A stretch of DNA of 64,000 bases from Candidatus Amesbacteria bacterium (GCA_963736875.1 CAVTQH010000004.1:187899-251898); one strand, 5' to 3'. Counted from the first letter of the stretch, positions 4,314 to 63,140 are shown. Numbers and translations are program-made. The notes: generated from the sequence alone by a model not told the origin.

Positions 4314-5129
4314 TCACTCCCCCAGCCGCCACCCGGCATATTCCTTTCCTATCCTGATACTGACTTCCCGGTCACCCAGATCCGGATCGGCACTCCACAT
4401 ACACTCAAAATATCTCACCAGCCATCTGACTCCGGTGTTTTGTTTCATATTTGTATTCGATCGGACCTCACATTTTTCGATATTTTCCTTACCCGCGGCC
4501 ACATTCACCACTTTAAAACCGGCGTTCTCCACCACCCGGGAAAAGCGGGTACCCAATCCCCCGATTCCCGTGGTGTTGTATACCGATACATTCAGATTCT
4601 CTTTCGCCAGTTTTGACGAAAAAAACATTTCCCCTATATTCTTCTGCCCGATATTTGATAAACCCAGAACTTTTTCCCCGTCAGGATCTGTATTTTCCTC
4701 AATCCAGCTGGTATCTGCCAGGCTGATCTCTTTATATTCCACCCCGCGGCTTACATTCCACCAGGCCAGTTTATCCCAAAAACCCATTTCTTCCCAAACC
4801 AAAGTATACGGCACCCCCAAAAAGTCAGCTACCGAGTCAGCCACCCATTTCACTCCGTTTTTCAACCCCAGTTTTGAAAGCGAACTGATTTTCCAGATAC
4901 CTTTTCCGTTCACCGTCGGTATCTCCATTTCCCCGGGCAGAATTACTTTTACACCTGACCCGGTTTCAGGATCAATGGATGAAACTGAAATATTATCCCC
5001 GTTCCCCCGGGTTTTAACCGTAGTATACCGGCTGAAACCATCCCAGACCCGTCTTTGATAGTTGTTAAACACCTCTGCAGAAATTATTCCCATTCCGATA
5101 AGTATTAATACCAAAAAAACGGTTTTCAT
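4314..5129 (-). CDS. Membrane-anchored LytR_C (LytR/CpsA/Psr C-terminal) domain protein
   Basis: N-terminal TM/signal segment. C-terminal block …NLNVSVYNTTGIGGLGTRFSRVVENAGFKVVNVAAGKE… is typical of the LytR_C domain. Confidence 0.6.
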   Translation of the reverse strand: MKTVFLVLILIGMGIISAEVFNNYQRRVWDGFSRYTTVKTRGNGDNISVSSIDPETGSGVKVILPGEMEIPTVNGKGIWKISSLSKLGLKNGVKWVADSVADFLGVPYTLVWEEMGFWDKLAWWNVSRGVEYKEISLADTSWIEENTDPDGEKVLGLSNIGQKNIGEMFFSSKLAKENLNVSVYNTTGIGGLGTRFSRVVENAGFKVVNVAAGKENIEKCEVRSNTNMKQNTGVRWLVRYFECMWSADPDLGDREVSIRIGKEYAGWRLGE

Positions 5130-6896
5130 ATAGAAAGTACCGCCTTATCAGTTGTTTTTTTATTCATAAAATAATCTTTCAGACTCTCCGTTTTTCCGTC
5201 CTTCCCGAAATGGTCAATTATATGAGCCAAAAATTCCCCTCCCACACTGTGAGGCAGCAGTACATAGTCAGCCCCTGCCTTATACAGTTTTCCTGCCTCG
5301 GAAACGTCATTTGCCGTCATCACCACAAGTCTGCCGGGTTTTTTAAACTCCGCCAGACCTGAAAGTAATTGCAGACTGTCATTTTCATCAGGCACAGTGG
5401 AAATAACCACCGCTGCTTTTCCCAGGTTAAGCTGATCGTGCAGCTCGCAGTCTGACATATCTCCGAATATCACTTTTACCCCCTCCTCCTTGAGCTTTTC
5501 AACAATTTCCGGATTGAAATCCACAACCAGCACATCTTTTCCCATTTTTTTCAATGCCGGAAGAATCCTGCTCCCCACCCGGTTATGCCCGAACAGTATT
5601 ATATGGTTATCAACCGTTTCCCTTTTCTCCCCGGAGTTTAAAATCTTTTTCTTTTCCCATATTCCCAATAACCCTTCCAGTTTGGTATACAACCAATGAG
5701 AATTCCATAACAGATACGTCGAACACGTCATGGTCAGTATTCCCACCAGGGTAACCAGTGTCAGCACCCGTTCCTGGACCAGTCCCGTTTTGACTGCATT
5801 GGCTACCATTACCAAAGAAAATTCCGATATTTGGGCTACTGCCAGACTGGCCATAAAATAGGTCCGCTTGCGGTACCCCATATTACCCAAAATTATCATA
5901 ATTGCCACCGGCCCTCCCGCTACCACCAAAAGCGACAGGACAATGGCCGGAATAACCAGGGTAGACATCCCTGTCCAGACCACGTTTGCTCCCAAGAGCT
6001 ACGAAAAACCAGGTCAGAAAAAAATCTCTTAAAGGCCTGACCCGGGAAATTATTTGTGCCTGTTCAGCCACATTTGCCAGAGTCAGGCCTGCCAAAAATC
6101 CTCCGATTTCCACCGAAAATCCCAATACCGGTGAGGCGACAATTGCCGCCACCACCAGACACCATCCGATTGAAGTAATAAACAGCAACTCGGTTGATTT
6201 TGCCAGATAATCCAGGATTCCCGCCATCACTTTTCCCGACAGCCACACCGCAGCAGTCACCATCAATCCGCCTTTTATTACCACTTCAATAAATGAACTT
6301 AAGGTTAACGTCCCGTCCACCCATCCTGAAAGCACCACCATCAATCCAATAATCACAAAATCCTGGACCAGCAAATATCCGACTGCAATTTTTCCCGACA
6401 GGCTTTGCAGATCTCCCTTTTCTGATAAAAGTTTGACTACCAGGATAGTACTGGCAAACGAAGTGGCTACCCCCAAATACATCGCTTCCACACCTGAAAA
6501 TCCCATCACTCTTGCCAGTACGAATCCTGCCGCCGAAGACACAATTATTTTTCCCACTCCGGCAACTAGTGATACTTTACCCATCCTTTTAAGTTCGGAT
6601 AAAGGCAGTTCCAGCCCGGCCAGAAACAAAAGCAATGTGATCCCGAATCTTCCCATCACTTCTATCATCACTTTCATCTGGGGATTCTCCATCCCGGTTC
6701 CGCCGAGTAGCGAAATTACTATCCCCGCTAGTACATATCCCAAAAGTGGCGGTTGGCGTAAAAGTCTGGCCACCACACCACCGGCGGCCGCCAGACCCAA
6801 AATTCCCGCCAGGCTGATAAATACACCCGATGTCTCCACTCCTATAAGTGTACCAGTTTCCCCAGGGCTGTGACCAGATCGGAGGGAACCGGGCAT
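5126..6896 (-). CDS. Kef-type monovalent cation:proton antiporter (CPA2) with a C-terminal TrkA-N/RCK domain; split into two overlapping ORFs by an apparent 1-nt frameshift near 5990-6000
   Basis: ORF 5883..6896 has Na+/H+-exchanger TM helices. ORF 5126..5995 continues the TM region and carries a Rossmann-type RCK domain (ILFGHNRVGSRI…). The frames switch at …FFVALG|ANVVWTG…. Confidence 0.7.
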
Positions 6897-7567
6897 TCAA
6901 AATCCATGATTTTTTCAAGTACCGGATGTTTAAGTGATAGCTTTTGAGCGTGCAGCCACATCCGGGAACACCACATCCGGTCTTTATCCGACTGCCGGCT
7001 GTTAAGGTAAAGAGAATCGCTGACAATCGGATGGCCCATGTGTTTTAAATGCACTCTCAGCTGGTGAGTCCGTCCGGTCATCGGTTTTAACTCCAGTAAT
7101 GAGTAACTGTCAGTGTTTAATCCGTAATGATTCAAAACTTTCCATTCGGTCACGGCAGTCCTGGATAAATCTCCCCCGACGGAAAATTTCCCCCAAACTT
7201 TGGGATTTCTGGTAATCGGAAGGCTGATAATCCCCTGCTTTGGATCAACTTTACCGTGTACCAGAGCGATATAAGTTTTTTTCACTCTGCGGTTTAAAAA
7301 CTGGGATTTTAACTTTTCATAAGATTGTGGGTTTTTTGCCATAATCAGAAGCCCGCTGGTATCCTTATCCAGCCGGTGTACCACTCCCCCCTTTTGCGCA
7401 AACTCTGTATCAGCATATGCTGTAAGCTGCAATTTGTAAGTTGTGGCAAACCATTCCTGTACGGTTTCTTCTCTGCTGGTTTGTGAATTATTCACCACCA
7501 TTCCCGCCGGTTTATCGATTACCACCAGACTCTCATCATCATAAACAACTTTCGGCTCACCGCTCAT
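6842..7567 (-). CDS. RluA-family 23S rRNA/tRNA pseudouridine synthase
   Basis: Catalytic HRLDKDTSGLL motif and RluA-like fold sequence. Confidence 0.85.
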   Translation of the reverse strand: MSGEPKVVYDDESLVVIDKPAGMVVNNSQTSREETVQEWFATTYKLQLTAYADTEFAQKGGVVHRLDKDTSGLLIMAKNPQSYEKLKSQFLNRRVKKTYIALVHGKVDPKQGIISLPITRNPKVWGKFSVGGDLSRTAVTEWKVLNHYGLNTDSYSLLELKPMTGRTHQLRVHLKHMGHPIVSDSLYLNSRQSDKDRMWCSRMWLHAQKLSLKHPVLEKIMDFECPVPSDLVTALGKLVHL

Positions 7568-7569
7568 AC

Positions 7570-8566: not shown

Positions 8567-8615
8567 GGTGTGGCAATTTTATCCCGGTCATTCTAAAATT
8601 ACAAAGTGACACCCA

Positions 8616-8700
8616 GCCGAAGTGGTGGAATGGTAGACACGCAGGTCTCAAAAACCTGTGGGCCCAAAAGCCCGTGACGGTTCGAGTCCGTCCTTCGGCA
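8616..8700 (+). tRNA. tRNA-Leu (anticodon CAA), class II with long variable arm; CCA not encoded
   Basis: 7-bp acceptor stem GCCGAAG/CTTCGGC, D-arm, anticodon stem CAGGT/ACCTG with loop CTCAAAA (anticodon CAA), long variable arm, T-arm GACGG-TTCGAGT-CCGTC, discriminator A. Confidence 0.8.
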
Positions 8701-9054
8701 CAAGCCTAGTGCCTGCGGCACCCCTCTTGACAATAACTCTTACTCTGTCCCATACTACTTTCAGTGACTGCCAGAAATCGCATGATCGTTAAATACCGGC
8801 TTATGGGTCTGGGGATTATATTCATCGCCTTGCTCACCATGTCCTTCGCCATCCTTTTAATTCAGGAACAGCAGCAGTATTCTGCTCTGGCCAGAACCTA
8901 TCAAGTTACTTACCCCTGAAAAATATGGCCAAAAAACCTGCCCCCTCCTCTCCGCTCTTTTTGGAGATTTTGTTCCTGCTGGTCTTCGTGACCTGTCTGG
9001 CAATCGGAATCATGGCAATCGCCGTACCAAAATTTGTACCTCCGGTCTGGTAAT

Positions 9055-14739: not shown

Positions 14740-15654
14740 GTGTCTGCCCCTACCCGTGCCTATCTCATGCTCCTGGCTGTGGCTGCAATCTGGGGTTTTG
14801 CCCCGCCGATCATCAAAGTGGCTTTTTCTTCCTTTCCCCCGCTGTTTTTTCTCACTTATCGTTTTTTAATTACCAACTTTATCCTGATCCCGGTCCTGCT
14901 TCTTACCGAACCGGACACCTGGCACACGCTTTCCCGTTTAAAACCCCGGGATTGGTTCATATTTATCGGAACCGGTATTCTGGGGTCCACCGTCCAGCTG
15001 GGTCTTTTATTTTGGGGTCTGAATTACACCACTTCGCTTGATGCCGCGGTCATTGGTGCCATACCGCCTGTTTTAGTGGCTATTGGCAGTGTAATATTTC
15101 TCAAAGAAAAAATATCCCGGAGAGGAATAATTGGTTTGACTGTGGCGTTTTTGGGATCAATTTTTATTGTCATTCAGCCGTTATTTGAAGGCAGGTCGGT
15201 TGTTTCCGGAAGTCTCACTGGTAACTTTCTGGTTTTTCTGGGAACCGTCTCCTGGGCAGTCTACGTGATTATCACCAAGCTGGAACTGCGCCACCGTCTT
15301 TCCCCCCTGCTTCTGACTGCCAATATGTTTTTTACCGGTTTTATCTCAATTTCTTTTATTTCCGTTTTCTATTATTCCCCGTCTGTTGTTTTCCGTCTCC
15401 TTTCCGCGGCTCCCATAAGCGCTCATGCCAGTGTGGTATACATGGCATTTATTTCCGGAGCCCTGGCCTACTGGCTTTATCAGAAAGCCCAAAAAGTCAT
15501 CGCCGCCTCCCGGGCTGATATTTTCCTCTACCTCTCCCCCGTTTTTACCGCCCCGCTGGCATATTATTTTCTGGACGAACCGATTACTCTTCCCCTGATT
15601 ATCGGATCATTTATCATCGCCGCCGGTGTGATTATCTCCCAGACCCGCCGCTAA
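14740..15654 (+). CDS. EamA/DMT-family transporter
   Basis: Ten TM helices in two EamA repeats. GTG start. Confidence 0.8.
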
Positions 15655-16533
15655 ATCTGTTACCACATTTCCCAGATCCCCTTCGATAATCCGGTCCAAT
15701 TGATGCCAGCTCTTGCCTATCCTGTGGTCGGTCACCCGGTTTTGGGGAAAATTATATGTCCTTATTTTCTCCGATCGCATGCTCCTGCCGATTTTTGAAC
15801 GTTGGTCTTTGAGGTTTGCCAGCTTTTTTTCCTGTTCCAACTCCCATAATTGTGACCGTAAAAGCGCCATGGCTATCTTTCTGTTCTGCTCCTGAAACCT
15901 TTCCTGCCGGGATTGCACTATTATTCCCGACGGTTTATGTAAAAGGCGCACCGCCGTAGCTACTTTGTTCACGTTCTGCCCTCCGTGACCTCCCCCCCGG
16001 GTAAATTCCCAGACCAGATCATCCTCTCTTATTTCTATCTGGTTTTCGGCAACTTCCGGAAGCACCACAATTGAAGCCGTGGAAGTGTGAATCCTGCCGT
16101 AAGCTTCGGTTACCGGTACCCGCTGTACCCGGTGAACCCCCGTCTCCCATTTTAACTTTTCAAAAACTCCTTTGCCTTTAAGCTTAATCACTCCGCTGTC
16201 CAATTGCTCGATTTGCCATTTATTATTTTCCGCAAATCGGCTGTACATCCGCATTAGTTCCTCGGCCCAGATTTTCGCTTCATCCCCTCCCACCCCGGGC
16301 CGTGCTTCCACAATAATGCTGTTAAAATTCTCAGTCGGTTCGCCGGCAGCATCATGTGAAGCAGGGTCGGTCATCGCCCGGTCAATTTTCTCTATCTCCG
16401 TCTCAATTCTCTTCACTTCTTCGTCTGCCATCTCCTTCATTCCGGGTTCCTGCCCCATTTTTTTGGCCTCTTCGAGTTTCAACTCCAGTCTTTCCTTCTC
16501 CTCCGTTAAATACTGATTTGCTTCGTTAGCCAC
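15607..16533 (-). CDS. prfA: Peptide chain release factor 1 (shortened N-terminal domain)
   Basis: GGQ motif ([13 protein letters not shown]) and RF1-type P-V-T tripeptide ([16 protein letters not shown]). No RF2 SPF motif and no programmed-frameshift site. Confidence 0.8.
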
Positions 16534-16545
16534 GGTCTTAATTAC

Positions 16546-16875
16546 TTAACTCACTTTGCTTCTTACCCGGTCAAACATTTCTTTCAGATTCTTGGGTTTG
16601 GCTGCTTCGATATCCTCTTCCTCTTTCTTTTTTATGGCCTGTCTTTTCTTTTTGGACAAAGAGGCCGTTCCCTTGGGTGCCGAAGCCATTTTCTGCTGAA
16701 ACTTCTCCACCCGGCCCATGGTATCCACAAACCTCATTTCACCGGTAAAGAACGGGTGGCACTTGGCACAAATATCCACATCAATTTTTTGTTTGGTCGA
16801 ACCTACCGTAAAAGTATTACCGCAGGCACACGTCACCACCGCCTCATAATATTTTGGGTGAATAGTCGCTTTCAT
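16546..16875 (-). CDS. rpmE: 50S ribosomal protein L31 with a Lys-rich C-terminal extension
   Basis: [22 protein letters not shown]…[10 protein letters not shown] zinc-ribbon L31 core. About 40 extra basic residues at the C-terminus. Confidence 0.85.
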
Positions 16876-26656: not shown

Positions 26657-26721
26657 GGTACTTAAATGATATTAAACTAAAATCAGATAATGTTACAATT
26701 AAATCCAGATATAGATATAGT

Positions 26722-27117: not shown

Positions 27118-27127
27118 GATCTGGTAC

Positions 27128-27863: not shown

Positions 27864-27947
27864 CGAAAATGGTATATTTAATCTGACCTATTGCATTACT
27901 TGGTTCTAGGTGATAGCCTCAACTATAGAGGTAAGTTCCCGATTAAG

Positions 27948-29624: not shown

Positions 29625-29769
29625 CTACCCTTATCATTTTGGGAAATAATTTTAGTCGCGCAATCTCTTGTTCGGTGATGTGGGTAAGATAATGAAATCC
29701 CCTTTTCAGGCTTCACGAATGATAAATCATTTTAGTTTCTCTCCGGTATATACTAAAATAAAAATACTT

Positions 29770-30858: not shown

Positions 30859-30898
30859 ACCCTTTCTCCCCTGTTTGACATAGTCATTACTATGAATC

Positions 30899-33178: not shown

Positions 33179-33180
33179 CC

Positions 33181-35731: not shown

Positions 35732-36104
35732 TTATGAAATTTTCAAAATTGACTTAACTTTGTTTACAAAGTCATCTACGGAAGTATCCGTCTTGACCAG
35801 GTAGTCGATCGCTCCCAGCTTCATTCCCCTCTCCACATCCTCTTTTTGACCTAAATTGGTGGCAATTAAAACCGGGATGGACTTCCACTTATCATTTTTC
35901 TTAATTTCCTCCAGAGTGGCAAATCCGTCTTTTCTGGGCATCACCAAATCCAGCAAAATTAAGTCGGGAATAAATTCCTTGAGTATGGACCAGCGCTTCT
36001 TCCCCGTCGGCCGCTGTCCTGACTTCAAACCCCATTTTTAAAAGCTTGACTTTGTAGGCACCGGACAAATACTTATCATCTTCAACTACTAATATTTTCT
36101 GCAT
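35732..36104 (-). CDS. Single-domain response regulator, split by an apparent frameshift near 35985-36000
   Basis: ORF 35901..36143 gives MQKILVVEDDKYLSGAYKVKLLKMGFEVRTAADGEEALVHTQ…. ORF 35732..36028 gives …KEFIPDLILLDLVMPRKDGFATLEEIKKND…KT…. Together they make one receiver domain. Confidence 0.55.
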
Positions 36105-36105
36105 G

Positions 36106-36510
36106 CTACTTTTTTTCACCCCCGTTCCCGGAAGTGATTTCATCCACCACTCCCATTAGATCATCCAATCTTGATTCAGCCTTCAACACATACTTTTTTG
36201 CTCCCAAGGCCAGCATCTCCGTCACCCGGTCCTGGGTAGCCGAATTGCTGACCACCATTACCGGGATATTTGCCCACGCCGGATTCTCCTTCAAAGCCAC
36301 CATAAACTTCAACCCGGTCATGTCTTTTAAATAATAATCCAGCCAGATTGCGTCGGGCGGCTGCGCCAGATTATTCATGCAGTCGATTGCCTGCTTCCCT
36401 GACATGCAGGCAATAACTTTTTTTCCGTCAATTTCCAGCTTTTTGGTGATGGCTTTTAAAAGCAACTCCTCGTCTTCCACCACCATCACCGTTATTGTTT
36501 TATTATCCAT
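36106..36510 (-). CDS. Single-domain response regulator (CheY-like)
   Basis: …ITVMVVEDEELLL…DAIWLDYYLKDMTG…VVSNS… receiver features. Confidence 0.8.
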   Translation of the reverse strand: MDNKTITVMVVEDEELLLKAITKKLEIDGKKVIACMSGKQAIDCMNNLAQPPDAIWLDYYLKDMTGLKFMVALKENPAWANIPVMVVSNSATQDRVTEMLALGAKKYVLKAESRLDDLMGVVDEITSGNGGEKK

Positions 36511-36541: not shown

Positions 36542-37895
36542 TCAGGAATCGATAGTTACTTCACCTTTTTTGGGTGGCGTCCCCGATACCGGTAAACTGA
36601 ACCAGAATGTTGTTCCCTTGTTTTCTTCACTGGCAAACCAGATTTTTCCCTTGGAAGAATCAATTATTGCCTTTACCAGATACAATCCCAGTCCTGTCCC
36701 GTCAGCATCCGCTCTTTGGGCATTTTCAGCTCTGAAAAACCTTTCAAACATTTTACCGTAGTCCGCTTTGGGTATTCCGCATCCGTTATCCGTCACCTGG
36801 GAAATAATTTCATCTTCCTTACGCGAAATAAATACCGAAATTTCCCCGTTGGCGGGGGTATATTTTATCGCATTGGACAACAGATTCAGATACACCTGCC
36901 TGATCAATTTGGGATCAACTTTTATTTGCGGCAGTTCCGGATGTACGCTGACCACCATATTTATTTTCTTTTCAATAATTTTCGGATGCAACTCCTTCAA
37001 TATCTGATTTACCAATTCCCCCAAATCCGTAGGTACCGGATCAATTTTTATTCTTCCCGATTCAATCCTGGAAATATTCAGAAGCGAATTCACCAGCTCG
37101 ATCATTCTCTCATTGGATTGGTATAAACATTGGACAAATTCGGTCTGCTCCGGGTTCAATTGACCGGCATCACCCCCGGAAAGCATTTCCGTATACCATT
37201 TAATTGCAGATAGCGGGGTCCTGAGCTGATGCGAAGCCAGAGAAACAAACTCTGTTTTTGCCCTGTCAATTTCTCTTTCCCGGGTGATATCCCGAAATAC
37301 CGCAATTACACCTACCGTCTTCCCGTTTAACAATCACCGGAGCTGCAGTTGTCCCGACGGAAAACTTGGTTCCGTCACGCCGGACATAATAATTGGTGCT
37401 GCTGGCTATCGGTTGTCCCGTAATCAGTACTTTTTGGGTGGCTCTTCTCTCGGCCGGAATCGCGTTTCCCTTTTCATCCGCCAACGGTGCCACTTCAAAC
37501 CATTTTTTACCCACCACTTCTTCATTCTTCCATCCCACCATCATTTCCGCCTGCTTGTTAATCATTTCGACGTTACCGTTTCTGTCAGTCACTACAATTC
37601 CCTCACCCAGACAACCCAACAAGGCAATATCCTTCGCCCGTTTTTCTTCCATCTCTTCCGTCCGTTTTTTCAAAAGATCCCTGCTTATTCTCAGCTGGCC
37701 CAGACTTCTCAGTGTCAATACCGCTAAAGCAACATTAAAAATATTTATTCCCAGTATTATTTCCCAGCTGTACAAGTTCGCGGAGCGATAATACAGGTAA
37801 ACCAGAATCGGAAAAATCACCACTGATAATGCCAGCCACAACCACCCTGACCATATTTTTCGTTCTTTCCCGACTTTTCTCTCCTTTTCCTCCAT
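36542..37895 (-). CDS. PAS-domain sensor histidine kinase, split by an apparent frameshift near 37325-37335
   Basis: N-terminal ORF (37266..37895) has 2 TM plus a PAS domain. C-terminal ORF (36542..37333) has H-box …[17 protein letters not shown]… and HATPase_c. The frames join at …TTAAPV|[18 protein letters not shown]…. Confidence 0.7.
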
Positions 37896-40770: not shown

Positions 40771-40986
40771 CTATCCTATCACTTTATATCCCTGTTTTTC
40801 TATTGTCTGGGTGATTTTTTTATCACTTGTTACTGCCGGATCGTATTCCACTTCCGCCGCCTGTTTCACAAAATCACATTTGGACTTGACTCCGATATCC
40901 TCCAGTTCCCCCTCAATCACCATGCAGCAGCTGGCACAGTGCAACCCGGATAATTTTAATGTTTTTTTAACCATCATTTTCTTCAA
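40771..40986 (-). CDS. copZ: Heavy-metal-associated (HMA) domain copper chaperone CopZ-like
   Basis: GLHCASC metal-binding motif (M/LxCxxC) in a ~70-aa ferredoxin-like fold. Confidence 0.8.
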   Translation of the reverse strand: MKKMMVKKTLKLSGLHCASCCMVIEGELEDIGVKSKCDFVKQAAEVEYDPAVTSDKKITQTIEKQGYKVIG

Positions 40987-41213
40987 TCGACTATTGTTAA
41001 TTGACCGCTGTACATCCCCATGGTACAGCTGAACAGCAGTTTACCTGATTTATCGGGAATTACTGCTTCAAAACTCTCACTTGTACCCGGCGGTACGACT
41101 TTGGATATTCCCAGTCCGGGGATATTTAAGGCCTGAATACATCCGTACCCTTCCTTATTCACCAGATTAAACTTCACTCTGCTGCCGGCTTTGACTACCG
41201 GATTATCCACCAA
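40983..41213 (-). CDS. Small hypothetical protein (76 aa), possibly a cupredoxin-like fragment
   Basis: TTG start. C-terminal …FSCTMGMYSGQLTIV… loosely resembles a C…M copper-site loop. No signal peptide. Confidence 0.3.
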   Translation of the reverse strand: MVDNPVVKAGSRVKFNLVNKEGYGCIQALNIPGLGISKVVPPGTSESFEAVIPDKSGKLLFSCTMGMYSGQLTIVD

Positions 41214-41338
41214 GTACCGGTTACTCTAAAATGGTAATCGTTACTTCGCCGGCTGCTTCACCGATTCCGTCCCGGAGTTTACTTCTTCCGGACAAAAACT
41301 AATCAGACAATTAATTTTTGCCGAAATATTCTGTGCCG

Positions 41339-42005
41339 TTACCGGACTTCCCAGAGATACCAATCCGGAATTAAAGCTGAAAAGTGCTGTTGCCAGAACC
41401 AGCGTATGCTGCGATTTTTCTGAATTTTTCCTTTGCCACTCCCTCCAGCTTGGTAATTGTCAGTCCCAGAATGAAAAACAGCGGTACTCGTACCCAACAC
41501 AAATGTTCCGAGTATCGCTCCTCCCGCCCACACACTGCCGGCGGCAACAGCCAGAGCCATCATTGCCTGGGTGGTTCCGCAAGGGAGAAATACCGTAGAA
41601 GCCCCCAGAACTACCGGAGCAAACCTATCTCCTGATTTCGCCGTCTGTCTGATAAATTTTCCCAAAAATCTGGGGGTTTGCAGTAAGAATCGCCTGAAAA
41701 ACGGATGTATATCAAACATTGCCATCGCCACCCCCAGCATATACACGGCAGCCGCAATCTGCAGAGCTGCTATCCCTCCGGGACCTAAATTTAACTGCCG
41801 ATCCCAAAGCTCCTAAAACAAATCCCAATATCACATAAGCTCCCAGTTTGGACACCAAAAAATATATTACGTCCGCCAATCCTGCCTTTCCTTCCTTACC
41901 GGCTACGGCGGTAGTCAGCAAACCTCCCTGAACCGCCACACAGCTGATTCCTCCGGCCAGAAGTCCTGTCATAAATACCCAGCCCAGATTCACCATGTGT
42001 GCCAT
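41339..42005 (-). CDS. Integral membrane protein with paired Cys motifs (possible thiol:disulfide or metal permease), split by an apparent frameshift near 41712-41746
   Basis: ORFs 41712..42005 and 41339..41746 are both strongly hydrophobic with …GGISCVAV… and …LPCGTTQAMMAL… motifs. The frames overlap. Confidence 0.4.
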
Positions 42006-52220: not shown

Positions 52221-53298
<1,078 letters not shown>

Positions 53299-53565: not shown

Positions 53566-54565
53566 ATGCCTGACTATTCCATAACCTTCCTCTGATTTAA
53601 TCGCCCAGACACCGGCTAGACCGCGAGATCACAGTCGGTTGCTTTTAATTGACCGCAGTACCGGCCATCTCTCCCACCACCGCTTTAATGAGCTTCCGGA
53701 CCTTCTTCATCCCACCGACGTCCTGGTTTTTAACAATACCAAAGTCTTCCCGGCACGATTACACGGTCAAAAAGTAACCGGAGGGTATGTGGAGGTATTA
53801 TTACTCAAAAATCATAATAAAGGACTCTGGGAGGTCATATCTCATCCAGGTCTTAAACCCGGTCAATGCCTTAATTTTAGTTTAAAGGTCAAAGCGGTCG
53901 TCATTGACCCAAATCACATCAGATTTCCTGATACTGTTAACTATTCGCTGTTAACCAAACTGGGCCTGACCCCGCTTCCCCCTTATATCCATCCCACCGT
54001 CGGAGAATCAATTCTGCGCAAACAATACCAGACAATTTATGCCAGATACCCCGGTTCCGCCGCAGCTCCTACGGCCGGTCTGCATTTTACCAAACGATTA
54101 TTAAGTCAGCTAAAAATCAGAAATATTCAGTCGGAATACCTGACTCTTCATGTCGGATTGGGAACATTCAAAGCACCTACCCCGCAGCAGATTTCTTCCG
54201 GAAAACTCCACAGTGAATACTTCGACCTTAACAGTCAAACCGCCGCACGACTGAATCACGCCAAATTAAAAAAACGGCGTATCATTGCGGTCGGTACCAC
54301 GGTCTGCCGGGTTCTTGAAGCCTGTTGTGACCCCAAAAGTCACCGGCTTTCCCAGGGTAAGGGAGAAACGGATATTTTTATCAAACCCCCGTATCAATTC
54401 AAATTTATCGACGGATTAATCACCAACTTCCACCTGCCGCGCACCAGTCTTCTGATGCTGGTATCCGCATTTTCTTCATGGCCGATAATCAACCGCGCTT
54501 ACCAGGAAGCTATCCGGCAAAAATACCGTTTCTATTCCTTCGGCGACGCCTGTTTGCTTATTTAA
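53566..54565 (+). CDS. queA: S-adenosylmethionine:tRNA ribosyltransferase-isomerase QueA (probable frameshift near 53588-53592 at the 5' end)
   Basis: Track ORF 53639..54565 is QueA-like throughout. Upstream, ATG-MPDYSITF in another frame plus …PSSDLIAQTPARPRDHSRLLLIDR… in frame matches the QueA N-terminus (MRVTDFSFELPESLIAHYP…). Confidence 0.75.
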
Positions 54566-55326: not shown

Positions 55327-56471
55327 TTACTTTCCCAACAGCTTGCTGATAAGGCCCATCCGCCACACGTCCTGCAGGGATACAAGTGCCATCAGCGTCA
55401 GCAAAAACGCCATACCCCAGGAATTCACTTTCTGTTCTATCTCGGCTGATATCCGGCGTTTAAACAGGTATTCGAGCCAGATAAACAGCATCCTCCCCCC
55501 GTCCAAAGCCGGAATCGGCAGCACGTTAAATACCGCCAGGTTCACGGATAATACAGCCACGAGTTCCAGAAGCGGCAGCCACCCTTCAGCCGCCACCAAA
55601 CCGGTCAATTGATATATTCCCACCGGTCCCGAAACTCCCTCCGGAGCTTTTCCGGCCACCAGATTTTTTCCGATTTGTCTTAATCCGTCAAAAACCCTGC
55701 CTATCCAGATTCCGGTTGATTTAAACCCCTGTCTGGCTACCCCGATAATACAGTCCGGATTGTACACTTTGCAGCTGACCGTGTTTACGTAAGGATAATC
55801 CGCAATCGTTACTCCCAATGCTCCCTGCCCCTCGGGGGGGTTTTTCCGGGGAACCACGGCAATCAGTTCCTCCCTGGTACCCCTTTCCGCAATCCCTTCA
55901 AAAAGCGGGGTTACCTGCCCCCGTTCGACAGTAATGCTCACTTTCAGTCCTCCCCAGGATTTCATCAGCTGTCCGAATTGTTGTACCGAATAAACCGGCT
56001 TCCCTTCAACTTTTACCACCCGTCTTCCACTGCAAAACCGGCGATAGCAGCCGGTGATTCCGGAGCAATTTCAACGACAGTTACTTTGGACTGGGTTTGA
56101 CCCGGTATTCCCACCACCGAATACAGCCAGCCAAAAGCCGCCAGTGCCAATACCAGATTCATCACCACTCCGGCAATTATTACGGCTATTCTTTGCTTTT
56201 TTCCCCGGCTCCAAAAATCCTTTCCCTTTAATGCTCCGGTCGATGCAGGACCTTCTTCACCCAAAAGTCTTACAAATCCTCCGAACAGCAAAGGGTACAG
56301 CGCAAACTGTGTTCCCCGTAATTTAAACTTTATCAGCGGTCTGGTAAACGGCAGTCCGAAAGCAAACTCTTCCACCCTGATTCCCAGTAATACCGCAGCC
56401 ATAAAATGCCCCAGTTCGTGAACCAGAACCAATACGGATAAAACCAGTCCGAAAACAACCCACGTCGGCAT
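55327..56471 (-). CDS. rseP: RIP metalloprotease RseP (site-2 protease, M50), split by an apparent G-run indel near 56013-56020
   Basis: N-terminal ORF has the HELGH zinc motif. C-terminal ORF has PDZ and the C-terminal LDGG motif. The reconstructed junction is …AVEDG(V)VKVEGKPV…. Confidence 0.8.
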
Positions 56472-56713: not shown

Positions 56714-57268
56714 TTATACTTTCATTAATTCCGCTTCCTTGGCTTTACCGGTATTTTCAATATCCAGCATCATTTTATCCATCACTTTTTGCAGCTCTTC
56801 CTCAATCCTCGTCCGGTCATCCTCAGGCAGTGTCCCGGCCTCAAATTCCCGCTTCATTTCACTCATTTTATCGTGCCGGATCTGCCTCAGTTTCACTCTC
56901 CCCTCCTCCATTTTCTGATGCAGCATCCGTACATACTCCTGCCTGCGTTCGGAAGTTAGTGCAGGCACCGCAATTCTGATGACATTATTATCCAAAACCG
57001 GGGTTAATCCCACATTTGCTCCGACAATATCCCTTCTGATGTCCCCGATAATCGACGGATCATAAGGGGTTACGAGAAGTGACTGGGGATCCGGAGCTGT
57101 GATGGTTGCCAGTTCCACTATCCGCATTTTGGCGGTTCCCCCGTATGCGTTGATTACGATATTTTCGACCAGCGTCGGAGTCGCCCTGCCGGTTCTGATA
57201 GTTCCGATATCCTGCTTCACAAACTCCAGTACCTTTTGCATCCTGGCCGGTACGTCTCCCAAATCCAT
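56714..57268 (-). CDS. frr: Ribosome recycling factor
   Basis: Full-length RRF-like sequence. Confidence 0.9.
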   Translation of the reverse strand: MDLGDVPARMQKVLEFVKQDIGTIRTGRATPTLVENIVINAYGGTAKMRIVELATITAPDPQSLLVTPYDPSIIGDIRRDIVGANVGLTPVLDNNVIRIAVPALTSERRQEYVRMLHQKMEEGRVKLRQIRHDKMSEMKREFEAGTLPEDDRTRIEEELQKVMDKMMLDIENTGKAKEAELMKV

Positions 57269-57301
57269 ATCCCAATAATATCACAAAGTCAATTTTCCGG
57301 A

Positions 57302-57595
57302 CTATGAATTCCCGATTTTTCCACTCGAAATTCTTTTCCCTCGCGCCCTGGCAATTTGCTTTGGTCCCTCCTGATGGGAAAAATTCTTCTCCAATCTCTT
57401 TACCAAGGCAAACAAACACGAATAACATACCGGAGCGTCAGACTTTTTCAGTGCGTCTCTTATTTCGTCCAAAGCTATGTCTGGTCTGTACCCTGTCTGG
57501 TAACAAGCACCATACAAACTCCCTCCGTTTTGTATCAATTTCATTAAATCCGGATTAACTTGATTGCATGTTTCACACCCTCCACACTTTGCCAT
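57302..57595 (-). CDS. Cys-rich small protein (CGGC…C … CYSC), unknown function
   Basis: Start at internal MAKCGGCETC…. Sits between tsf and frr, where pyrH usually lies. Confidence 0.35.
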   Translation of the reverse strand: MAKCGGCETCNQVNPDLMKLIQNGGSLYGACYQTGYRPDIALDEIRDALKKSDAPVCYSCLFALVKRLEKNFSHQEGPKQIARARGKRISSGKIGNS

Positions 57596-57630
57596 TTGGG
57601 AATTATACCCTATCAAAGGCTTTTATTCAC

Positions 57631-58077
57631 CTAGACTTTCAATACTTTGAATTCCACCACCTGGATATTTTCACCCAGCTTGCCGATTACTTCCTTGATC
57701 AGTACTTCTATTGTCTTTGACGGATCCCGGACATATTCCTGTTTCAAAAGCGTTTCCACCGACTCCGGATCGCTGGCGCAAACATGCATTGCCAGTTCTC
57801 TGCCCAATTTCTGAAAATCGTCTGTTTTGGCCACAAAATCCGTCTCGCAGGCCAAAGCCAGAATAGCTCCCGTCACCCCGGTGTGATGCGCATAGGTAAA
57901 CACCATTCCCGCTTTTACTTCCCTCTCCCCTTTCTTGGCTGCTTTCTCGATTCCTCTTTTTCTCAGCCACTCCGTGGCTTTTTTCTGATCACCGCCGCTT
58001 TCATCCAGCGCCTGCCGGCAGTCGGACACTCCCGCTCCCGTGGCTTGCCGTAATTTTTTAATAGCCAGTACATCCAT
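57631..58077 (-). CDS. tsf: Elongation factor Ts (short 148-aa form)
   Basis: N-terminal UBA-like …LRQATGAGVSDCRQALDESGGDQKKATEWLRKRG… and a single dimerisation/core domain. Confidence 0.85.
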   Translation of the reverse strand: MDVLAIKKLRQATGAGVSDCRQALDESGGDQKKATEWLRKRGIEKAAKKGEREVKAGMVFTYAHHTGVTGAILALACETDFVAKTDDFQKLGRELAMHVCASDPESVETLLKQEYVRDPSKTIEVLIKEVIGKLGENIQVVEFKVLKV

Positions 58078-58079: not shown

Positions 58080-58938
58080 TTATTTTTTCTCCTTTACAAC
58101 TTTTGCCAATACTTCAACTTTAGCCTCTTTCCCAACTTCCTCCTCGACTTTTTTTTCTATTTCTTCGGCCACCGCTTCTGCCACCTCCGGTTCGGATTTT
58201 TTCTCTTTTTTAATTTTTTTCTCCTTCACTTCATCCCGGGGTTTATCCCCTGGCTGAGACCGCTTTCCCTCTTCCACCGCGTCCGCTATAGCCTTGACAA
58301 TCAATTCAATCGATTTTACCGCATCGTCATTGGCGGCAATTAAATAGTCCACAATTTCCGGCCGGGCATTGGTATCCACGATTCCCACAACCGGAATCCG
58401 CATTCTTACCGCTTCCCGCACGGCTACTTCTTCCCGATGGGTATCCACCACAAATATTGCGTCGGGTAAGTCTGCTCAATGCTGCCACCCCGCCGAAAAA
58501 CTTTCCCAGACTGACAATTTCCCGGTCAAACAGAAGCCTTTCCTTCTTGGTATATTTGTTCAGTTCCCCCGCTTCTTTTTTGGCTTTAAGATCAGCCAGT
58601 TTGTGGATGCTTTTTGACAGCTGGGAAAAATTAGTTAGAAGCCCTCCCATCCACCTGACACTGGTATACGGCATCCCGACTCTGATCGCTTCCGCTTTTA
58701 CCATATCCGCCGCCTGTCTTTTGGTCCCCACAAACAAAATTACTCCGCCTTCGGACGCCACCTTTTTTACAAAATCGCAGGCTGCTTCCAGTCCTTCTTT
58801 GGTTTTGGCCAAATCAAAAATATGCACTCCGTCCCTCACGCCGTAAATATATTTACTCATTGCCGGATTCCACCGTCTCTTCATATGCCCGAAATGGCAA
58901 CCGGCTTCCAATAATTCCTCCAAAGTGATTTTCTTCAT
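58080..58938 (-). CDS. rpsB: 30S ribosomal protein S2, split by an apparent C-run indel near 58450-58460; Lys/Glu-rich C-terminal tail
   Basis: N-terminal ORF …[13 protein letters not shown]…FVGTKRQA…. The C-terminal frame continues …[18 protein letters not shown]…[10 protein letters not shown]…. Confidence 0.85.
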
Positions 58939-59089
58939 TACTGCTTTCTCCTTAATCCGCCACCTGTCAGAAGTTAATCAGGAGAAAATGACAAGTGTGT
59001 GAAATAACTTCCTTATTCTATCCCAAACTCCGACCTCTTGCCTAGTCCCATCCGCATTTTCAATCACTAGCCTGTTTCTCCCGCCGTTC

Positions 59090-59660
59090 TTAGCCTGATA
59101 CATCAGCCCGTCCGCTCTGATCAATAAAATCTGCAGCTGATTCATCCGGTCTGGCTAAAGTTGCTCCCACACTTACCGTAATTCTTCTGTCTGTAAGTCC
59201 TGCCTGGCCTGCTACTTCGGACCAAATTTTTCCGCCCATTCTCTTGGCTGTCTGTTTCAGCTGCTTCTTCATCCTTCGCTTCCGGAATTATCAATATTAA
59301 TTCCTCCCCCCCGAACCGTCCGGCCAGCCCGGTTTCTCCCTCCTCATCTTTAATTATTTCCGCCACTGCCTTCAGTACCTTATCCCCTACCAAATGCCCA
59401 AACTCGTCATTAATATTTTTTAAAAAATCCAGATCAATAAACAAAATCCCCACTTTCCAGCCGTGTTTCTTAGCCACTTTCAGCTCTCTTGCCAGAGAAG
59501 CTCCGATATACGCCTGATTAAACAAACCTGTCAGTCCGTCGCGGATTGCATCTCTCTCTGCTTTGACTAACCTTGCAGCCCATTTATCCGCCATCTGGTC
59601 GGGACTTAAAAACCCTCCGCTTATTTTCGCTAAGTCACTTTTATATCTGCTTTTACCCAT
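59090..59660 (-). CDS. GGDEF-domain protein (stand-alone diguanylate-cyclase-like), split by an apparent frameshift near 59270
   Basis: …DGLTGLFNQAY…FIDLDFLKNINDEFGHLVGDKVL…RFGGEELILI… has GGEEL, a variant of the GG[D/E]EF motif. The C-terminal piece lies in the overlapping ORF 59090..59272. Confidence 0.6.
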
Positions 59661-59720: not shown

Positions 59721-60490
59721 TTATTTTTTCGCCTTGATTAACTCCAGCAGATTTGCAAATAACATCGCTACCGTTACCGGTCCCACTCCTCCGGGGACAG
59801 GCGTAAAAAACGAAGCTTTACCCGCCACTTCCGGATCAAAATCACCGTGCGGATACCCCACATCAATACACACCACCCCTTCCTTTACCATCTGCGGCCG
59901 GATCAGCCGTTCCTGCCCGGTACAGGAAATTACTACATCCGCATCTCTTAAAATGTCCGCACTAAAATCATCCTTATCCATTCCGGCACACCGAAGCTCC
60001 TCTCACCAGTCTTGATCCGACCGTTCCCCTGTTTCCCACCACCACAATTTTTTGATATTTGTTTATTGAATTTAATATTTCTGTCACCGCCCTCACTGTC
60101 GCCGGAACTACCAAAGACCTGACATTCAGCCCGTCCGCGTCTTTGCCGGGATCAATCAAAAGACTTAATTTAATATCCTGAGACCGGCTGCCGGTTAAAG
60201 GCAGCTGCAGCATGATTCCGTCAACTCTCTCGTCCTTGTTTAAGTTGCTGACCAACCCTTCCGGATCGGTCGTGCTTTTCAGATCATAAGCAGTCAATTC
60301 AATTCCCAACTCCCCGGCTTTTTTCTTTTTAATGTTGGTGTACATTCTTCCTTCGGGATCCTGGGGATTACAAATCGATACTAATCGCGGCGCCCGTCCC
60401 AGATCTCCTGGTTATCCGGACCACTTCACTTTTAAGTCGGTTCTCGATTCTCCCCGCCATCTCCTTCCCGTCAAATATCACCGTATTCAT
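59721..60490 (-). CDS. folD: Bifunctional methylene-THF dehydrogenase/methenyl-THF cyclohydrolase FolD, fragmented by two apparent frameshifts (about 59980 and 60390)
   Basis: Three consecutive frames give MNTVIFDGKEMAGRIENRLKSEV…, then …YTNIKKKKAGELGIE…QLPL…VVVGNRGTVG…, then …DADVVISCTGQ…VCIDVGY…GGVGPVTVAML…. Confidence 0.7.
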
Positions 60491-61704
60491 GGTACCGGAA
60501 ATTTGGCACATAACTGTTTCACTTTTAAATTGACCTCCCGGGCTTGACTTTTTGAGCTCAAAATTTCATCTATCAGTCCGGCAATTTGTCTCATTTCCGG
60601 CTCTTTCATTCCCCGGGTTGTTACCGCCGGTGTTCCCAGCCGGATGCCGGAAGGTTTTTTGGCAGAACCCGGATCATAGGGTACGGTGTTGGCATTAACC
60701 ACTATCCCCGCCTCTTCCAAGGATACCGCAGCATCTTTACCCGAAATCCCTTTATCCTGCAGATCAACTACCATCATATGGTTGTCTGTTCCTCCCGTGC
60801 TCAGACTCAGACCCGATGCGGTTAGTTCTCCGGCCAGCACTTTTGCATTTTTAACTACCTGGCTGATATATGCTTTAAATTCCGGCCGGGACGCTTCTTC
60901 CAATGCAATCGCTATCCCGGCAATGGCTGCTTCATGCGGTCCTCCCTGGATTCCCGGAAATACCCCCCGGTCAATTTTATTAGAAAGCGTCGGGTCTTTG
61001 TCCAAACCTCTTTGGGTTACCATAAGCATCGCTCCCCGGGGACCTCGGAGGGTTTTATGAGTGGTAGTCATAATAATATCGGCATAAGGCACCGGCGACG
61101 GGTGCTCCCCGGCGATAACCAAACCGGCAATATGGGAAATATCCGCCAGTAAATATGCTCCGGTCTTTTCCGCCGCCCCGGCAAATCTTTCCCATTTGAT
61201 TTCCCGCGGATAGGCGGTAATACCGGCAATAATTAATTTCGGCTTCTCCCTAACTGCCATTTCCTCCATCCTGTCGTAATCCAGAAAACCTTTATCATCT
61301 ACGTCATACTGAACGGCGTTAAAAAACTTCCCCGAAAATGATGCCGCCTGGCCGTGTGTCAGATGCCCTCCCGCGGACAGTTTCATCCCCATAATCTTTT
61401 CTCCGGGAGAAATAAGCGCCAGAAGTACCGCGGCATTGGCCGGAGACCCGGAATAAGGCTGGACATTGGCATACGGTACACCGAACAATGATTTTGCTCG
61501 TTCTATGGCAATATTCTCTATTTCATCGATATATTTATTTCCCTGGTAGTATCGTTTCCCCGGATATCCCTCCGCATACTTATTGTTCAGTACCGAACCC
61601 TGTGCTTGCCGGACTGCCCTACTGGTATAGTTCTCGGACGGGATGAGCATCAGTGTTTCCCTCTGCCTTTTTTCTTCCGCTTTTATCAATTCAGTTATAT
61701 TCAT
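60487..61704 (-). CDS. glyA: Serine hydroxymethyltransferase
   Basis: PLP-lysine context …TTTHKTLRGPRG…, full-length SHMT. Start at the internal Met (MNITELIKAEE…). Confidence 0.9.
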   Translation of the reverse strand: MNITELIKAEEKRQRETLMLIPSENYTSRAVRQAQGSVLNNKYAEGYPGKRYYQGNKYIDEIENIAIERAKSLFGVPYANVQPYSGSPANAAVLLALISPGEKIMGMKLSAGGHLTHGQAASFSGKFFNAVQYDVDDKGFLDYDRMEEMAVREKPKLIIAGITAYPREIKWERFAGAAEKTGAYLLADISHIAGLVIAGEHPSPVPYADIIMTTTHKTLRGPRGAMLMVTQRGLDKDPTLSNKIDRGVFPGIQGGPHEAAIAGIAIALEEASRPEFKAYISQVVKNAKVLAGELTASGLSLSTGGTDNHMMVVDLQDKGISGKDAAVSLEEAGIVVNANTVPYDPGSAKKPSGIRLGTPAVTTRGMKEPEMRQIAGLIDEILSSKSQAREVNLKVKQLCAKFPVP

Positions 61705-61751
61705 TCGATAATTATACCCGTTCCGCCTGATTATTTGGTATATTAGGGCGT

Positions 61752-62291
61752 ATGGAAGAATCTCTTGAATACTCCTCACCGCTGACATGGGAGTCTTTTT
61801 ACAGACCGGTGTCGGCTGCTGTGGAACGACAATTGTTTCCGGATGCTGTCAATCGTCTAGCCCCTACGTTTTTACAGATTTCCAAATTAGCTTCCCTGCC
61901 GACACCGGAGCAATTGGGATTTACCTGGACCGGCGACCTGTCCCCGTCTCAAAACCAGGCTTTTGCCGCACTATGGAACCTCAAAAACCATCACCCCGGC
62001 GAATACTGGGCAGGTCTTCGCCAGTACTCTACCGAACAGCGGTTTATTACCCAGTTCACTCCGAATTCGTTAGCCGACAGCTACCTTATTAATATTACTA
62101 AGGAAAGCCGGAGAGCTTGTACAGGACTTTTCTTGAACCGGTTACGGTACCGGAATTTCAGTCCGAATTACAGCGAAATATTAACAAAAGATCCCAAATT
62201 TACCAATCTTAAACCAAATCAAAAAATCCTTCTGACTTATATCGCCACCGCCACCATCGCCCGCAAATCCACTTTCACCCGCCACATTTAA
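61752..62291 (+). CDS. Hypothetical protein (179 aa)
   Basis: ORF only. One of few plus-strand genes in this stretch. Confidence 0.4.
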   Translation: MEESLEYSSPLTWESFYRPVSAAVERQLFPDAVNRLAPTFLQISKLASLPTPEQLGFTWTGDLSPSQNQAFAALWNLKNHHPGEYWAGLRQYSTEQRFITQFTPNSLADSYLINITKESRRACTGLFLNRLRYRNFSPNYSEILTKDPKFTNLKPNQKILLTYIATATIARKSTFTRHI

Positions 62292-62689
62292 TCTTCCCCC
62301 CGCCGGTTACTCATTTTGCCACCATCCTCCTCATCCAATATTTGCCATAGACAGGACATCGCCTGAAGTCGCAATCCCGAATAATTCTCCGGAGGCTTTA
62401 CTCCCCTCTCATTGGCGCTATCAATTATTTCCTGCCACCTCTTTTCTATCCTTTGTTGAAAATTGGTTTTCGGCGTATTGTATCCTGAAATGCGCCTCAT
62501 CCAGTCGGTAAATATCAAAGCATATGAGATAGCCCCCATAGGAGGTGCTCTCCCCGATTTCTGCTTCCACCTCCTCAATCTTCCCAGGACTCTGGTTAAA
62601 TCACCATTTCTCATAAACGTAGCCGCCGGACCTTTAAGTTGTTTCTTGACCTTCACCATCGCCTCTCCGAAACTGCATTTCTCACTCAT
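62288..62689 (-). CDS. Hypothetical protein (133 aa)
   Basis: ORF only. Confidence 0.35.
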   Translation of the reverse strand: MSEKCSFGEAMVKVKKQLKGPAATFMRNGDLTRVLGRLRRWKQKSGRAPPMGAISYALIFTDWMRRISGYNTPKTNFQQRIEKRWQEIIDSANERGVKPPENYSGLRLQAMSCLWQILDEEDGGKMSNRRGED

Positions 62690-62707
62690 CCCGCCAGTTT
62701 TACCATA

Positions 62708-63140
62708 CTATTTCTTTCCCGTCGACCCGAATCCGCCCCGGCTCTTTCCTCCCATTGATTCTACTTCCACCCAATCGGCTTTTTCCCTGGGTAATACAAG
62801 CATTTGAGCTATCCGTGTTCCCTTCTCCACTTCGACTTTCTTTTTTGTAAAATTCCATACTGCCAGTTTCCACTCATCCTTATCTCCGCAATAATCCGGA
62901 TCAATAATCCCGACTCCGTTCACCGGCATTAATCCCATTTTATGAGTCGAGCTTCGGACCGCCAAAATTCCCACATATCCGTCAGGAATTTTCATCACGA
63001 TATTTAATGGTATATAAGCCACCTCTACCCGGCAAAACCACGGTATTTTTCCTGGTATATAAATCCGCCGAAGTCGCTTCGGGCGTCATGTATTCAGGTA
63101 AAGGCAGACCCTTATCAATTCTTTTAATTCTGATTCTCAT
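62708..63140 (-). CDS. dut: dUTP diphosphatase, apparent frameshift near 63025-63035 separating the N-terminal ~35 codons
   Basis: Motifs …AVRSS…, …GIIDPDY…, C-terminal …GGFGSTG. The upstream frame encodes MRIRIKRIDKGLPLPEYMTPEATSADLYTRKNTVVLPG (dUTPase motifs 1-2). Confidence 0.75.

Follow-up and report, generated by a model that had tools for sequence, protein, structure and literature searches.

Eleven genes in a 64,000-nt stretch of DNA from a Candidatus Amesbacteria bacterium (the window) are disrupted by 17-18 frameshifts of 1 nt each (Table 1). Judged from the sequence, these frameshifts are probably errors in the assembled consensus and not features of the organism, a reading to which we assign a probability of about 0.93. 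It upholds, if indirectly, the first-pass annotation, which had invoked sequencing or assembly indel error instead of gene decay; the support comes from an indel-only spectrum, low dN/dS values, intact genes in relatives and a bias toward insertions.

Frameshifts in the window

Adjacent fragments match complementary portions of one Pfam profile, and all 12 sites listed in the first-pass annotation are true frame changes within one gene. That list was incomplete, as the 17-18 events include two in the GGDEF gene and five in the DsbD_2 gene. Splitting of at least twelve genes had been claimed; the splitting is real but the number is 11, since folD had been entered twice. Extra bases outnumber missing bases by ~13-15 to 2-4 among the 17-18 events. 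Every disruption is 1 nt long, with no larger, multi-base indels among them, and in-frame nonsense mutations were not found in the ~75 genes of the window. The essential single-copy gene rpsB is split at ~58470, with the S2 profile divided between two frames, which bears out the statement that essential genes are included. A reference-free codon-usage frame plot agrees with the events deduced from homology but is too noisy to reveal compensated indel pairs.

Table 1 Genes of the window disrupted by 1-nt frameshifts
Gene	Position	Strand	Disruption
Kef-type Na+/H+ exchanger with TrkA_N	5126..6896	-	one extra base, ~5985-5998; coding-strand context GCTCTTGGGAGCA
Single-domain response regulator (REC)	35732..36143	-	one extra base, ~35982-35997, CTGGTCCATAC
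PAS histidine kinase	36542..37895	-	one extra base, ~37324-37333, GTTAAAC
DsbD_2 + Cupredoxin_1 fusion ('TauE/SafE' type, ~330 aa)	40983..42005	-	five 1-nt shifts, near 41786 (+1), 41489 (+1), 41401 (+1), 41266 (-1) and 41222 (+1)
tgt (queuine tRNA-ribosyltransferase)	52221..53298	+	one extra base, 52810-52820, TCGTTTTCC
queA	53566..54565	+	net +1 frame offset, 53578-53600
rseP (M50 site-2 protease with PDZ)	55327..56471	-	one missing base, ~56017-56025
rpsB (ribosomal protein S2, essential)	58080..58938	-	one extra base, ~58464-58476, AGCAGACTT, no homopolymer
GGDEF diguanylate cyclase	58978..59660	-	two extra bases, ~59226-59287 and ~59124-59135 (GATTTTATT)
folD	59721..60490	-	two extra bases, ~60385-60411 and ~59984-59992 (GGTGTGCC)
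dut (dUTPase)	62708..63140	-	one extra base, ~63019-63034, AGAGGTGGC

Repair of the reading frames

A single-base edit at each site produced one full-length Pfam match in 10 of the 11 genes, consistent with the earlier proposal that two consecutive ORFs, when joined, restore a conserved protein. The unrepaired Kef fragments match residues 4-273 of the 375-residue Na_H_Exchanger profile and TrkA_N; deletion of base 5992 yields a 589-aa protein that matches Na_H_Exchanger 4-363/375 followed by TrkA_N. The REC fragments cover positions 1-38 and 30-100 of the 111 in Response_reg, and the repaired protein of 136 aa covers 1-100 (81.8 bits). In the PAS histidine kinase, PAS resides in the upstream fragment and HisKA with HATPase_c in the downstream fragment; the repaired protein (450 aa) combines PAS_4 (5-110/110), HisKA and HATPase_c.

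The tgt fragments match TGT 3-181 and 184-334 of 357, which become 3-334/357 after repair, and full-length homologues cover 99-100% of the repaired protein. The N-terminal tgt fragment of 206 aa (P0077), located on a 311,559-bp contig, has already been deposited in NCBI/ENA. The collections searched contained no independently assembled genome of this species, the closest tgt protein in them being 89% identical. For queA, alignment with the relative L081 points to one surplus base or, alternatively, to bases lost at both 53581 and 53598, and both repairs were tried; the two-insertion repair extends the Queuosine_synth match from 26-322 in the unrepaired ORF to 3-322/322. At the rseP site the window reads CCCGTC, versus CCCGGTC in L081. 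The rseP fragments match Peptidase_M50 2-105 and 127-221 of 221, and the repaired 381-aa protein contains 2-221/221 of the profile in addition to the PDZ domain.

The rpsB fragments cover Ribosomal_S2 1-149 and 156-216 of 216, and the repaired protein the entire profile (1-216/216, 281.7 bits). An alignment with the S2 protein of L082 places the frame switch immediately ahead of the conserved LPDAIF motif. The shift, formerly assigned to a C-run, is thus located in AGCAGACTT before the LPD motif. Homology to the GGDEF protein of L082 is spread over three frames, and repair extends the profile match from 1-100 to 1-161/161. The folD coding sequence likewise passes through three frames; repaired, it specifies 255 aa with THF_DHG_CYH (2-115/115) and THF_DHG_CYH_C (12-158/160). 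The C-terminal dut fragment alone matches dUTPase 34-129 and the repaired 143-aa protein 4-129/129.

The eleventh gene had been described as a Cys-motif membrane protein split at ~41730. It is indeed split, but by five shifts instead of one, and it encodes a DsbD_2-cupredoxin fusion. Its fragments match DsbD_2 2-65 and 77-186 of 199. All of the listed homologues (P0121-P0240) contain PF13386 and PF13473; most are single proteins of ~320-345 aa, P0133 being among the few partial ones. Most of them span 97-100% of the frame-stitched protein. When P0133 and P0121 served as tblastn queries, the locus was traversed in the frames -3, -1, -2, -3, -2, -3, and long stretches identical to P0133, the closest homologue, are retained despite five shifts in ~1 kb. 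Alignment to orthologues had been advised in the first-pass annotation; both these searches and the blastn comparison with L081, in which the gap in tgt lies exactly at 52810-52820, revealed gaps or frame switches at the sites.

Several other arrangements that resemble split genes were dismissed. The REC/Crp pair at 26629-27117 and 26987-27802 consists of separate intact REC and Crp-type genes, and L31 followed in frame by RF1 represents two genes with a TAA stop between them. The overlap of RluA and Kef at 6842-6896 is an ordinary one, and that of CysS with the next gene also occurs in a relative. The 148-aa tsf product is of full length for the lineage (150 aa in L082), and the small Cys-rich ORF at 57302-57616 is undisrupted. 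An 81-aa ORF at 38331-38576 overlaps a Fic/Doc gene by 122 nt and may hide another indel.

Intact relatives and selection

In L081, with ~85% nucleotide identity, tgt, queA and rseP are intact and the gene order is kept. The same applies in L082/L083 to tgt, queA, rseP, frr, tsf, rpsB, GGDEF, folD and SHMT. A scan of the genome collection with SHMT (60487-61788) as query gave scattered matches resembling horizontal gene transfer, the best of which was just 67% identical. Downstream of the shifts, dN/dS relative to L081 amounts to 0.082 in tgt, 0.019 in rseP and 0.21 in queA, at a dS of ~0.6-0.7. Strong purifying selection (dN/dS ~0.02-0.21) persists in these frames. Amino acid identity to L082 is ~70% for tgt, 65-70% for rseP and 73% for rpsB among the broken genes, and 75% for CysS, 73% for RecR, 72% for frr and 74% for tsf among their intact neighbors. 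By this comparison the broken genes have an excess of indels but not of substitutions.

Distribution and origin of the indels

Only one shift, that in Kef at ~6.0 kb, occurs between 0 and 35.7 kb. The error-bearing stretches are ~35.9-37.4, 41.2-41.8, 52.8-53.6, 56.0, 58.4-60.4 and 63.0 kb, together with the one site at 6.0 kb. At most one of 13 events within 0-35 kb would be expected under uniformity with P = 6e-4, and the clustering in the 35-64 kb half reported previously is thereby confirmed. Within that half the shifts are patchier than had been implied, since 42-52.8 kb is also free of them while elsewhere up to 5 per kb are found. The patchy distribution itself was taken to favor consensus error; the abruptness with which clean sequence gives way to dirty sequence was counted against it.

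The window is probably part of a 311,559-bp contig in the metagenome-assembled genome (MAG) of a Candidatus Amesbacteria-like (Microgenomates/CPR) bacterium. Some stretches of its consensus would carry random single-base indels, mostly spurious insertions, at 0.5-5 per kb, and each error would shift the frame and lead gene callers to report a single real gene as two to six ORFs that overlap. Low-coverage or poorly polished long reads, or a hybrid assembly patched with long reads, are a probable source because the contig is long, the spectrum consists of indels only, insertions predominate, and the errors are patchy and independent of homopolymers. The patchiness, the preponderance of insertions and the independence of homopolymers suggest gaps filled with long reads, patches left unpolished or locally reduced coverage and not a uniform platform bias. 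However, the missing association with homopolymers does not match the classic pattern of Nanopore, 454 or Ion Torrent, and the exact technical cause is therefore uncertain.

Residual indels that fragment gene calls are documented for long-read assemblies and MAGs (PMC9262707; PMC12007338; bioRxiv 10.1101/2021.08.23.457338). Of the known phenomena, the fragmentation of long-read and hybrid assemblies, which is measured by the IDEEL test and corrected by proovframe or Kastor, comes closest to the window. Both feature 1-nt indels, overlapping adjacent ORFs and affected essential genes in the absence of other decay, both involve a long MAG contig, and in both a reference-guided one-base repair restores full length. 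Unlike in typical cases, the indels of the window lie off homopolymers, are mostly insertions and are strongly patchy on one contig.

Classic homopolymer-type errors of the Nanopore R9, 454 or Ion Torrent kind are the best-known consensus fault of long reads (PMC9262707), and the first-pass annotation had suggested them, having placed several shifts at short homopolymers. Runs of 3-4 bases are in fact present at tgt (TTTT), the second GGDEF site (TTTT), the PAS histidine kinase (AAA), and Kef and the first folD site (GGG). As ~24% of all bases reside in runs of >=3, a few matches to short runs are expected by chance. The link to homopolymers is weak, and they are not the driver. None of the localized shifts falls in a run of >=5, despite 238 such runs (81 of them >=6) between 35.7 and 64 kb; the sole candidate is the poorly localized first GGDEF shift, whose interval includes an A5 run. 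At the rpsB, REC, second folD, and second, third and fifth DsbD_2 shifts no run exceeds 2. Homopolymer errors in Nanopore consensus sequences are mostly missing bases whereas extra bases dominate here, and this origin is unlikely. On the basis of a few contexts, a link to methylation motifs (CCWGG, GATC) of the sort seen with Nanopore errors was considered; most sites lack these motifs, and the shifts are placed too imprecisely for such a link.

Pseudogenes and frameshifting as alternatives

The breaks stand in the public record, as P0077 demonstrates, and they might reflect genuine, very recent pseudogenization, either of a symbiotic CPR lineage undergoing degeneration or of a cell line that is defective. 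CPR bacteria are symbionts with reduced genomes, and a frameshift is the commonest lesion by which bacterial genes are inactivated. Frameshifted, recognizable remnants beside intact genes are also seen in Mycobacterium leprae and recently host-restricted symbionts. Decay of the M. leprae type, however, also leaves nonsense codons and deletions of larger size, raises dN/dS, favors deletion over insertion and spares rpsB and other essential genes, none of which holds for the window. Here the essential rpsB is broken together with folD, dut and rseP within ~28 kb, without nonsense mutations, larger indels or an excess of amino acid substitutions, and dN/dS remains at 0.02-0.2 beyond the shifts. 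Five shifts in one otherwise well-conserved 1-kb gene, and the presence of 10 kb and 35 kb of clean sequence beside dirty stretches, likewise argue against pseudogenes. Spontaneous mutation in bacteria is biased toward deletion, as Mira, Ochman and Moran reportedly found in 2001; the excess of insertions runs opposite to this bias and hence supports consensus error. Pseudogenization is thus very improbable.

Programmed or tolerated +1 ribosomal frameshifting, or transcriptional slippage, would keep the genes functional and would account for the conserved downstream frames. Some 13-15 of the 17-18 events have the same sign and could be decoded only with a +1 shift, as at prfB (CUU UGA C) and at the +1 sites that are frequent in Euplotes, and two sites are on T4 runs (TCG-TTT-T in tgt and GAT-TTT-A at the second GGDEF site). 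Yet the sites of the window, in contrast to those of prfB and Euplotes, share no motif, their contexts including AGCAGACTT, ACGAGTA, GCTGGTT, TTAGAGT and GGTGTGCC, and most are not slippery homopolymers. At least two events (rseP and the fourth DsbD_2 shift) are of opposite sign, and at the shift the upstream frame meets neither a stop nor a rare codon but runs on for 2-49 codons. Moreover, none of L081, L082/L083, P0121 and P0133 departs from the frame at any corresponding site. Such frameshifting is even less credible than gene decay. Slimmer still is the chance that the extra bases are real and that full-length proteins are made from many +1-shifted genes of this bacterium, rpsB included, through unusually permissive +1 frameshifting or RNA-level correction. 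If true, permissive +1 decoding would be a bacterial counterpart of the pervasive frameshifting in Euplotes, but nothing supports real indels.

Consequences for gene content

Based on the consensus-error reading, 10 of the ~45 genes in the 35.7-64 kb region, about a fifth, would be mis-called as fragments. Fragments such as P0077 would make protein families seem larger and genomes less complete than they are, and the region needs polishing or frame correction ahead of functional inference. In CPR bacteria, such fragments could pass for gene loss in the queuosine, folate and dUTP pathways and in c-di-GMP signaling.

Split genes and their repair

At every site listed in the first-pass annotation, neighbouring ORFs on the same strand fit complementary parts of one Pfam profile, so that the gene splitting it described holds throughout. 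When one base per site (two for the GGDEF, folD and queA genes) was edited in ten of the genes and the products were rescanned against Pfam, each of the ten repaired proteins gave a single full-length match.

Pfam matches (profile positions) of the split genes before and after repair, with the lengths of intact counterparts in the relatives' contigs L082 and L083
Gene	Upstream fragment	Downstream fragment	Repaired protein	Length in L082/L083 (aa)
Kef	Na_H_Exchanger 4-273/375	TrkA_N	Na_H_Exchanger 4-363/375 + TrkA_N	
REC regulator	Response_reg 1-38/111	Response_reg 30-100/111	REC 1-100/111	
PAS kinase	PAS	HisKA + HATPase_c	PAS_4 5-110/110, then HisKA + HATPase_c	
DsbD_2-cupredoxin	DsbD_2 2-65/199	DsbD_2 77-186/199		
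tgt	TGT 3-181/357	TGT 184-334/357	TGT 3-334/357	360
queA	lacks N-terminal 25 positions	26-322/322	QueA 3-322/322	338
rseP	Peptidase_M50 2-105/221	Peptidase_M50 127-221/221	Peptidase_M50 2-221/221, PDZ insert present	387
rpsB	Ribosomal_S2 1-149/216	Ribosomal_S2 156-216/216	S2 1-216/216, 281.7 bits	280
GGDEF	GGDEF 1-100/161	60 aa, no match	GGDEF 1-161/161	245
folD	catalytic domain 25-115	C-terminal domain 74-159	both FolD domains	263
dut	short N-terminal piece, no match	dUTPase 34-129	dUTPase 4-129/129	

The overall tally in the window is 17-18 events in 11 genes and not in twelve, folD having been entered twice in the earlier count. All sites then listed are indeed frame changes, but the list was incomplete, and further events were found in the GGDEF, queA and DsbD_2 genes. 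The GGDEF coding sequence is spread over three frames and must therefore contain two shifts, while the net +1 offset of queA corresponds either to one extra base or to two missing bases 17 nt apart. The protein earlier described as a Cys-motif membrane protein is a DsbD_2 and Cupredoxin_1 fusion. Both domains are present in all of its listed homologues, most of which are single proteins of ~320-345 aa that cover the stitched query to 97-100%, P0133 being one of a few partial ones. Six frame segments, from 42005 to 40983, were traced by tblastn with the closest homologues, P0133 and P0121, and the gene therefore contains five one-base shifts within ~1 kb. The fusion, annotated 'sulfite exporter TauE/SafE', is conserved among Amesbacteria, Levybacteria and further Patescibacteria; in the window a 71-aa heavy-metal-associated (HMA) protein follows it.

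Comparison with relatives

The best full-length relatives of the repaired tgt product are proteins of Candidatus Amesbacteria and other Patescibacteria (Microgenomates). The N-terminal tgt fragment is matched at 100% identity by P0077 (206 aa), which NCBI and ENA record on one 311,559-bp contig. The window thus belongs to a public metagenome-assembled CPR genome, whose record includes the tgt frameshift. In L081, a JGI metagenome contig of ~85% nucleotide identity, tgt, queA and rseP are intact, and blastn of the window against it placed single-base gaps exactly at the shift sites, the remaining gaps summing to multiples of three. Two independent short-read-style contigs, L082 and L083, with ~70% protein identity to the window, have the gene order of its 42-61 kb part with every gene intact, including frr (186 aa) and tsf (150 aa).

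Assembly error or biology

On these sequence comparisons the frameshifts in this public CPR MAG are very probably artefacts of assembly, a reading to which we assign a probability of about 0.93. Error rather than gene decay, the reading first proposed, is supported indirectly by several independent and mutually consistent lines, namely the spectrum of lesions, selection, identity, sign bias, the essential genes affected and patchiness. Recent genuine pseudogenisation is very improbable: every disruption is of 1 nt, and neither in-frame nonsense codons nor larger frame-breaking indels were present in the ~75 genes checked. Strong purifying selection has acted on the sequence downstream of the shifts, where dN/dS relative to L081 is 0.082 in tgt, 0.019 in rseP and 0.21 in queA, with dS at ~0.6-0.7. 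Broken and intact genes have equal amino-acid identity to their L082 orthologues, the excess being limited to indels. Decay is further contradicted by the ratio of extra to missing bases, about 13-15 to 2-4, whereas natural bacterial mutation is deletion-biased, and by the breakage of the essential rpsB, as well as of folD, dut and rseP, in an organism with a small genome. The five shifts in the 1-kb DsbD_2-cupredoxin gene occur together with long identical stretches shared with its nearest homologue and therefore reflect an error rate and not a history of decay. Programmed +1 frameshifting has its sole attraction in the sign bias of the events and is less probable still, because the sites have no common motif, at least two events are of opposite sign, the upstream frame continues for 2-49 codons with no stop at the shift site, and all relatives are in frame at the corresponding positions.

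Distribution and possible origin of the frameshifts

The clustering noted between 35 and 64 kb stands insofar as a single event lies in 0-35.7 kb (P = 6e-4 under uniformity for no more than one of 13 events before 35 kb), but 42-52.8 kb is also clean; elsewhere 0.5-5 events occur per kb. DnaB, HisRS, RF1, HtrA, CtpA, YchF, S6-SSB-S18 and large dockerin and CBM proteins are full length in the first half. The proposed link to short homopolymers was not upheld. No localised event lies in a run of at least 5, despite 238 such runs and 81 of at least 6 between 35.7 and 64 kb, and the longest run is at most 2 at several well-localised events (rpsB AGCAGACTT, ACGAGTA, GCTGGTT, TTAGAGT and GGTGTGCC). 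Chance would account for the small number of T4, A3 and G3 contexts, since ~24% of all bases sit in runs of at least 3.

The consensus may rest on a small number of error-prone long reads, or a hybrid assembly may contain patches of long-read sequence. Such an origin would fit the signature of the events (random position, insertion-rich, indel-only, patchy) better than a homopolymer-limited platform. Residual indels that split gene calls are well documented in long-read assemblies and low-coverage MAGs (PMC9262707; PMC12007338; bioRxiv 10.1101/2021.08.23.457338).

Other features of the window

Features of the window
Feature	Positions	Strand
Tyrosine recombinase (XerC or phage-integrase type), full length, left end	141-1043	-
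tRNA-Leu(CAA), the one tRNA	8616-8701	+
rpmE and release factor	15607-16875	-
Four large intact ORFs (577, 396, 759, 538 aa)	27891-34856	+
Fic/Doc ORF	37925-38446	-
81-aa ORF	38331-38576	
DsbD_2-cupredoxin and HMA pair	40771-42005	-
DsbD_2-cupredoxin fusion	40983-42005	-
tgt segment with cancelling gaps	52432-52548	+
tsf to frr	56714-58077	-
Small Cys-rich ORF (MAKCGGCETC...)	57302-57616	
SHMT	60487-61788	-

The GC content is 41-50%. Strand asymmetry is very strong, and unusually so for a CPR genome: the GC skew of the + strand is -0.08 to -0.36 per 2-kb window, approaching zero only at 30-32 kb, and the - strand carries the majority of genes. The window has a tyrosine recombinase and a tRNA-Leu, and nothing indicative of an integrated element was seen. 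In the tgt segment, the alignment to L081 has one gap of 3 nt and three of 1 nt, which cancel out within ~40 nt; the cause is either loop variability or a pair of mutually compensating indel errors, by which a few codons would be garbled and the ORF kept open. On the - strand, the 81-aa ORF overlaps the Fic/Doc ORF by 122 nt in another frame; the two are either an unusually overlapping toxin-antitoxin pair or the result of another indel that lengthens the upstream ORF.

A TAA stop separates rpmE (L31, with a long Lys/Glu-rich tail) from a release factor in the same frame, which at 308 aa is short and lacks ~40 N-terminal PCRF profile positions. The TAA was rejected as a nonsense mutation, the arrangement of L31 and a separate release factor looking natural. 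EF-Ts is short in the lineage (148 aa in the window, 150 aa in L082 and in L084, another relative). No pyrH lies between tsf and frr; the small Cys-rich ORF takes its place, and at this position relatives encode 74-114 aa in an ORF that carries no annotation. The best matches of SHMT, at 50-67% identity, are spread across CPR phyla, DPANN-like archaea, Dehalococcoidia and Gemmataceae, which suggests a gene that is widely exchanged or slowly evolving. SHMT is of little use for locating near relatives of the window.

The first three of the four large ORFs encode CBM96, CBM_4_9, beta-helix and dockerin type I domains and the fourth a PMT_2 glycosyltransferase; the occurrence in an Amesbacteria-like genome of secreted proteins bearing dockerins may merit attention. 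The frameshifts, read as artefacts, hold no biological interest and amount to a practical warning: protein databases already contain fragments such as P0077.
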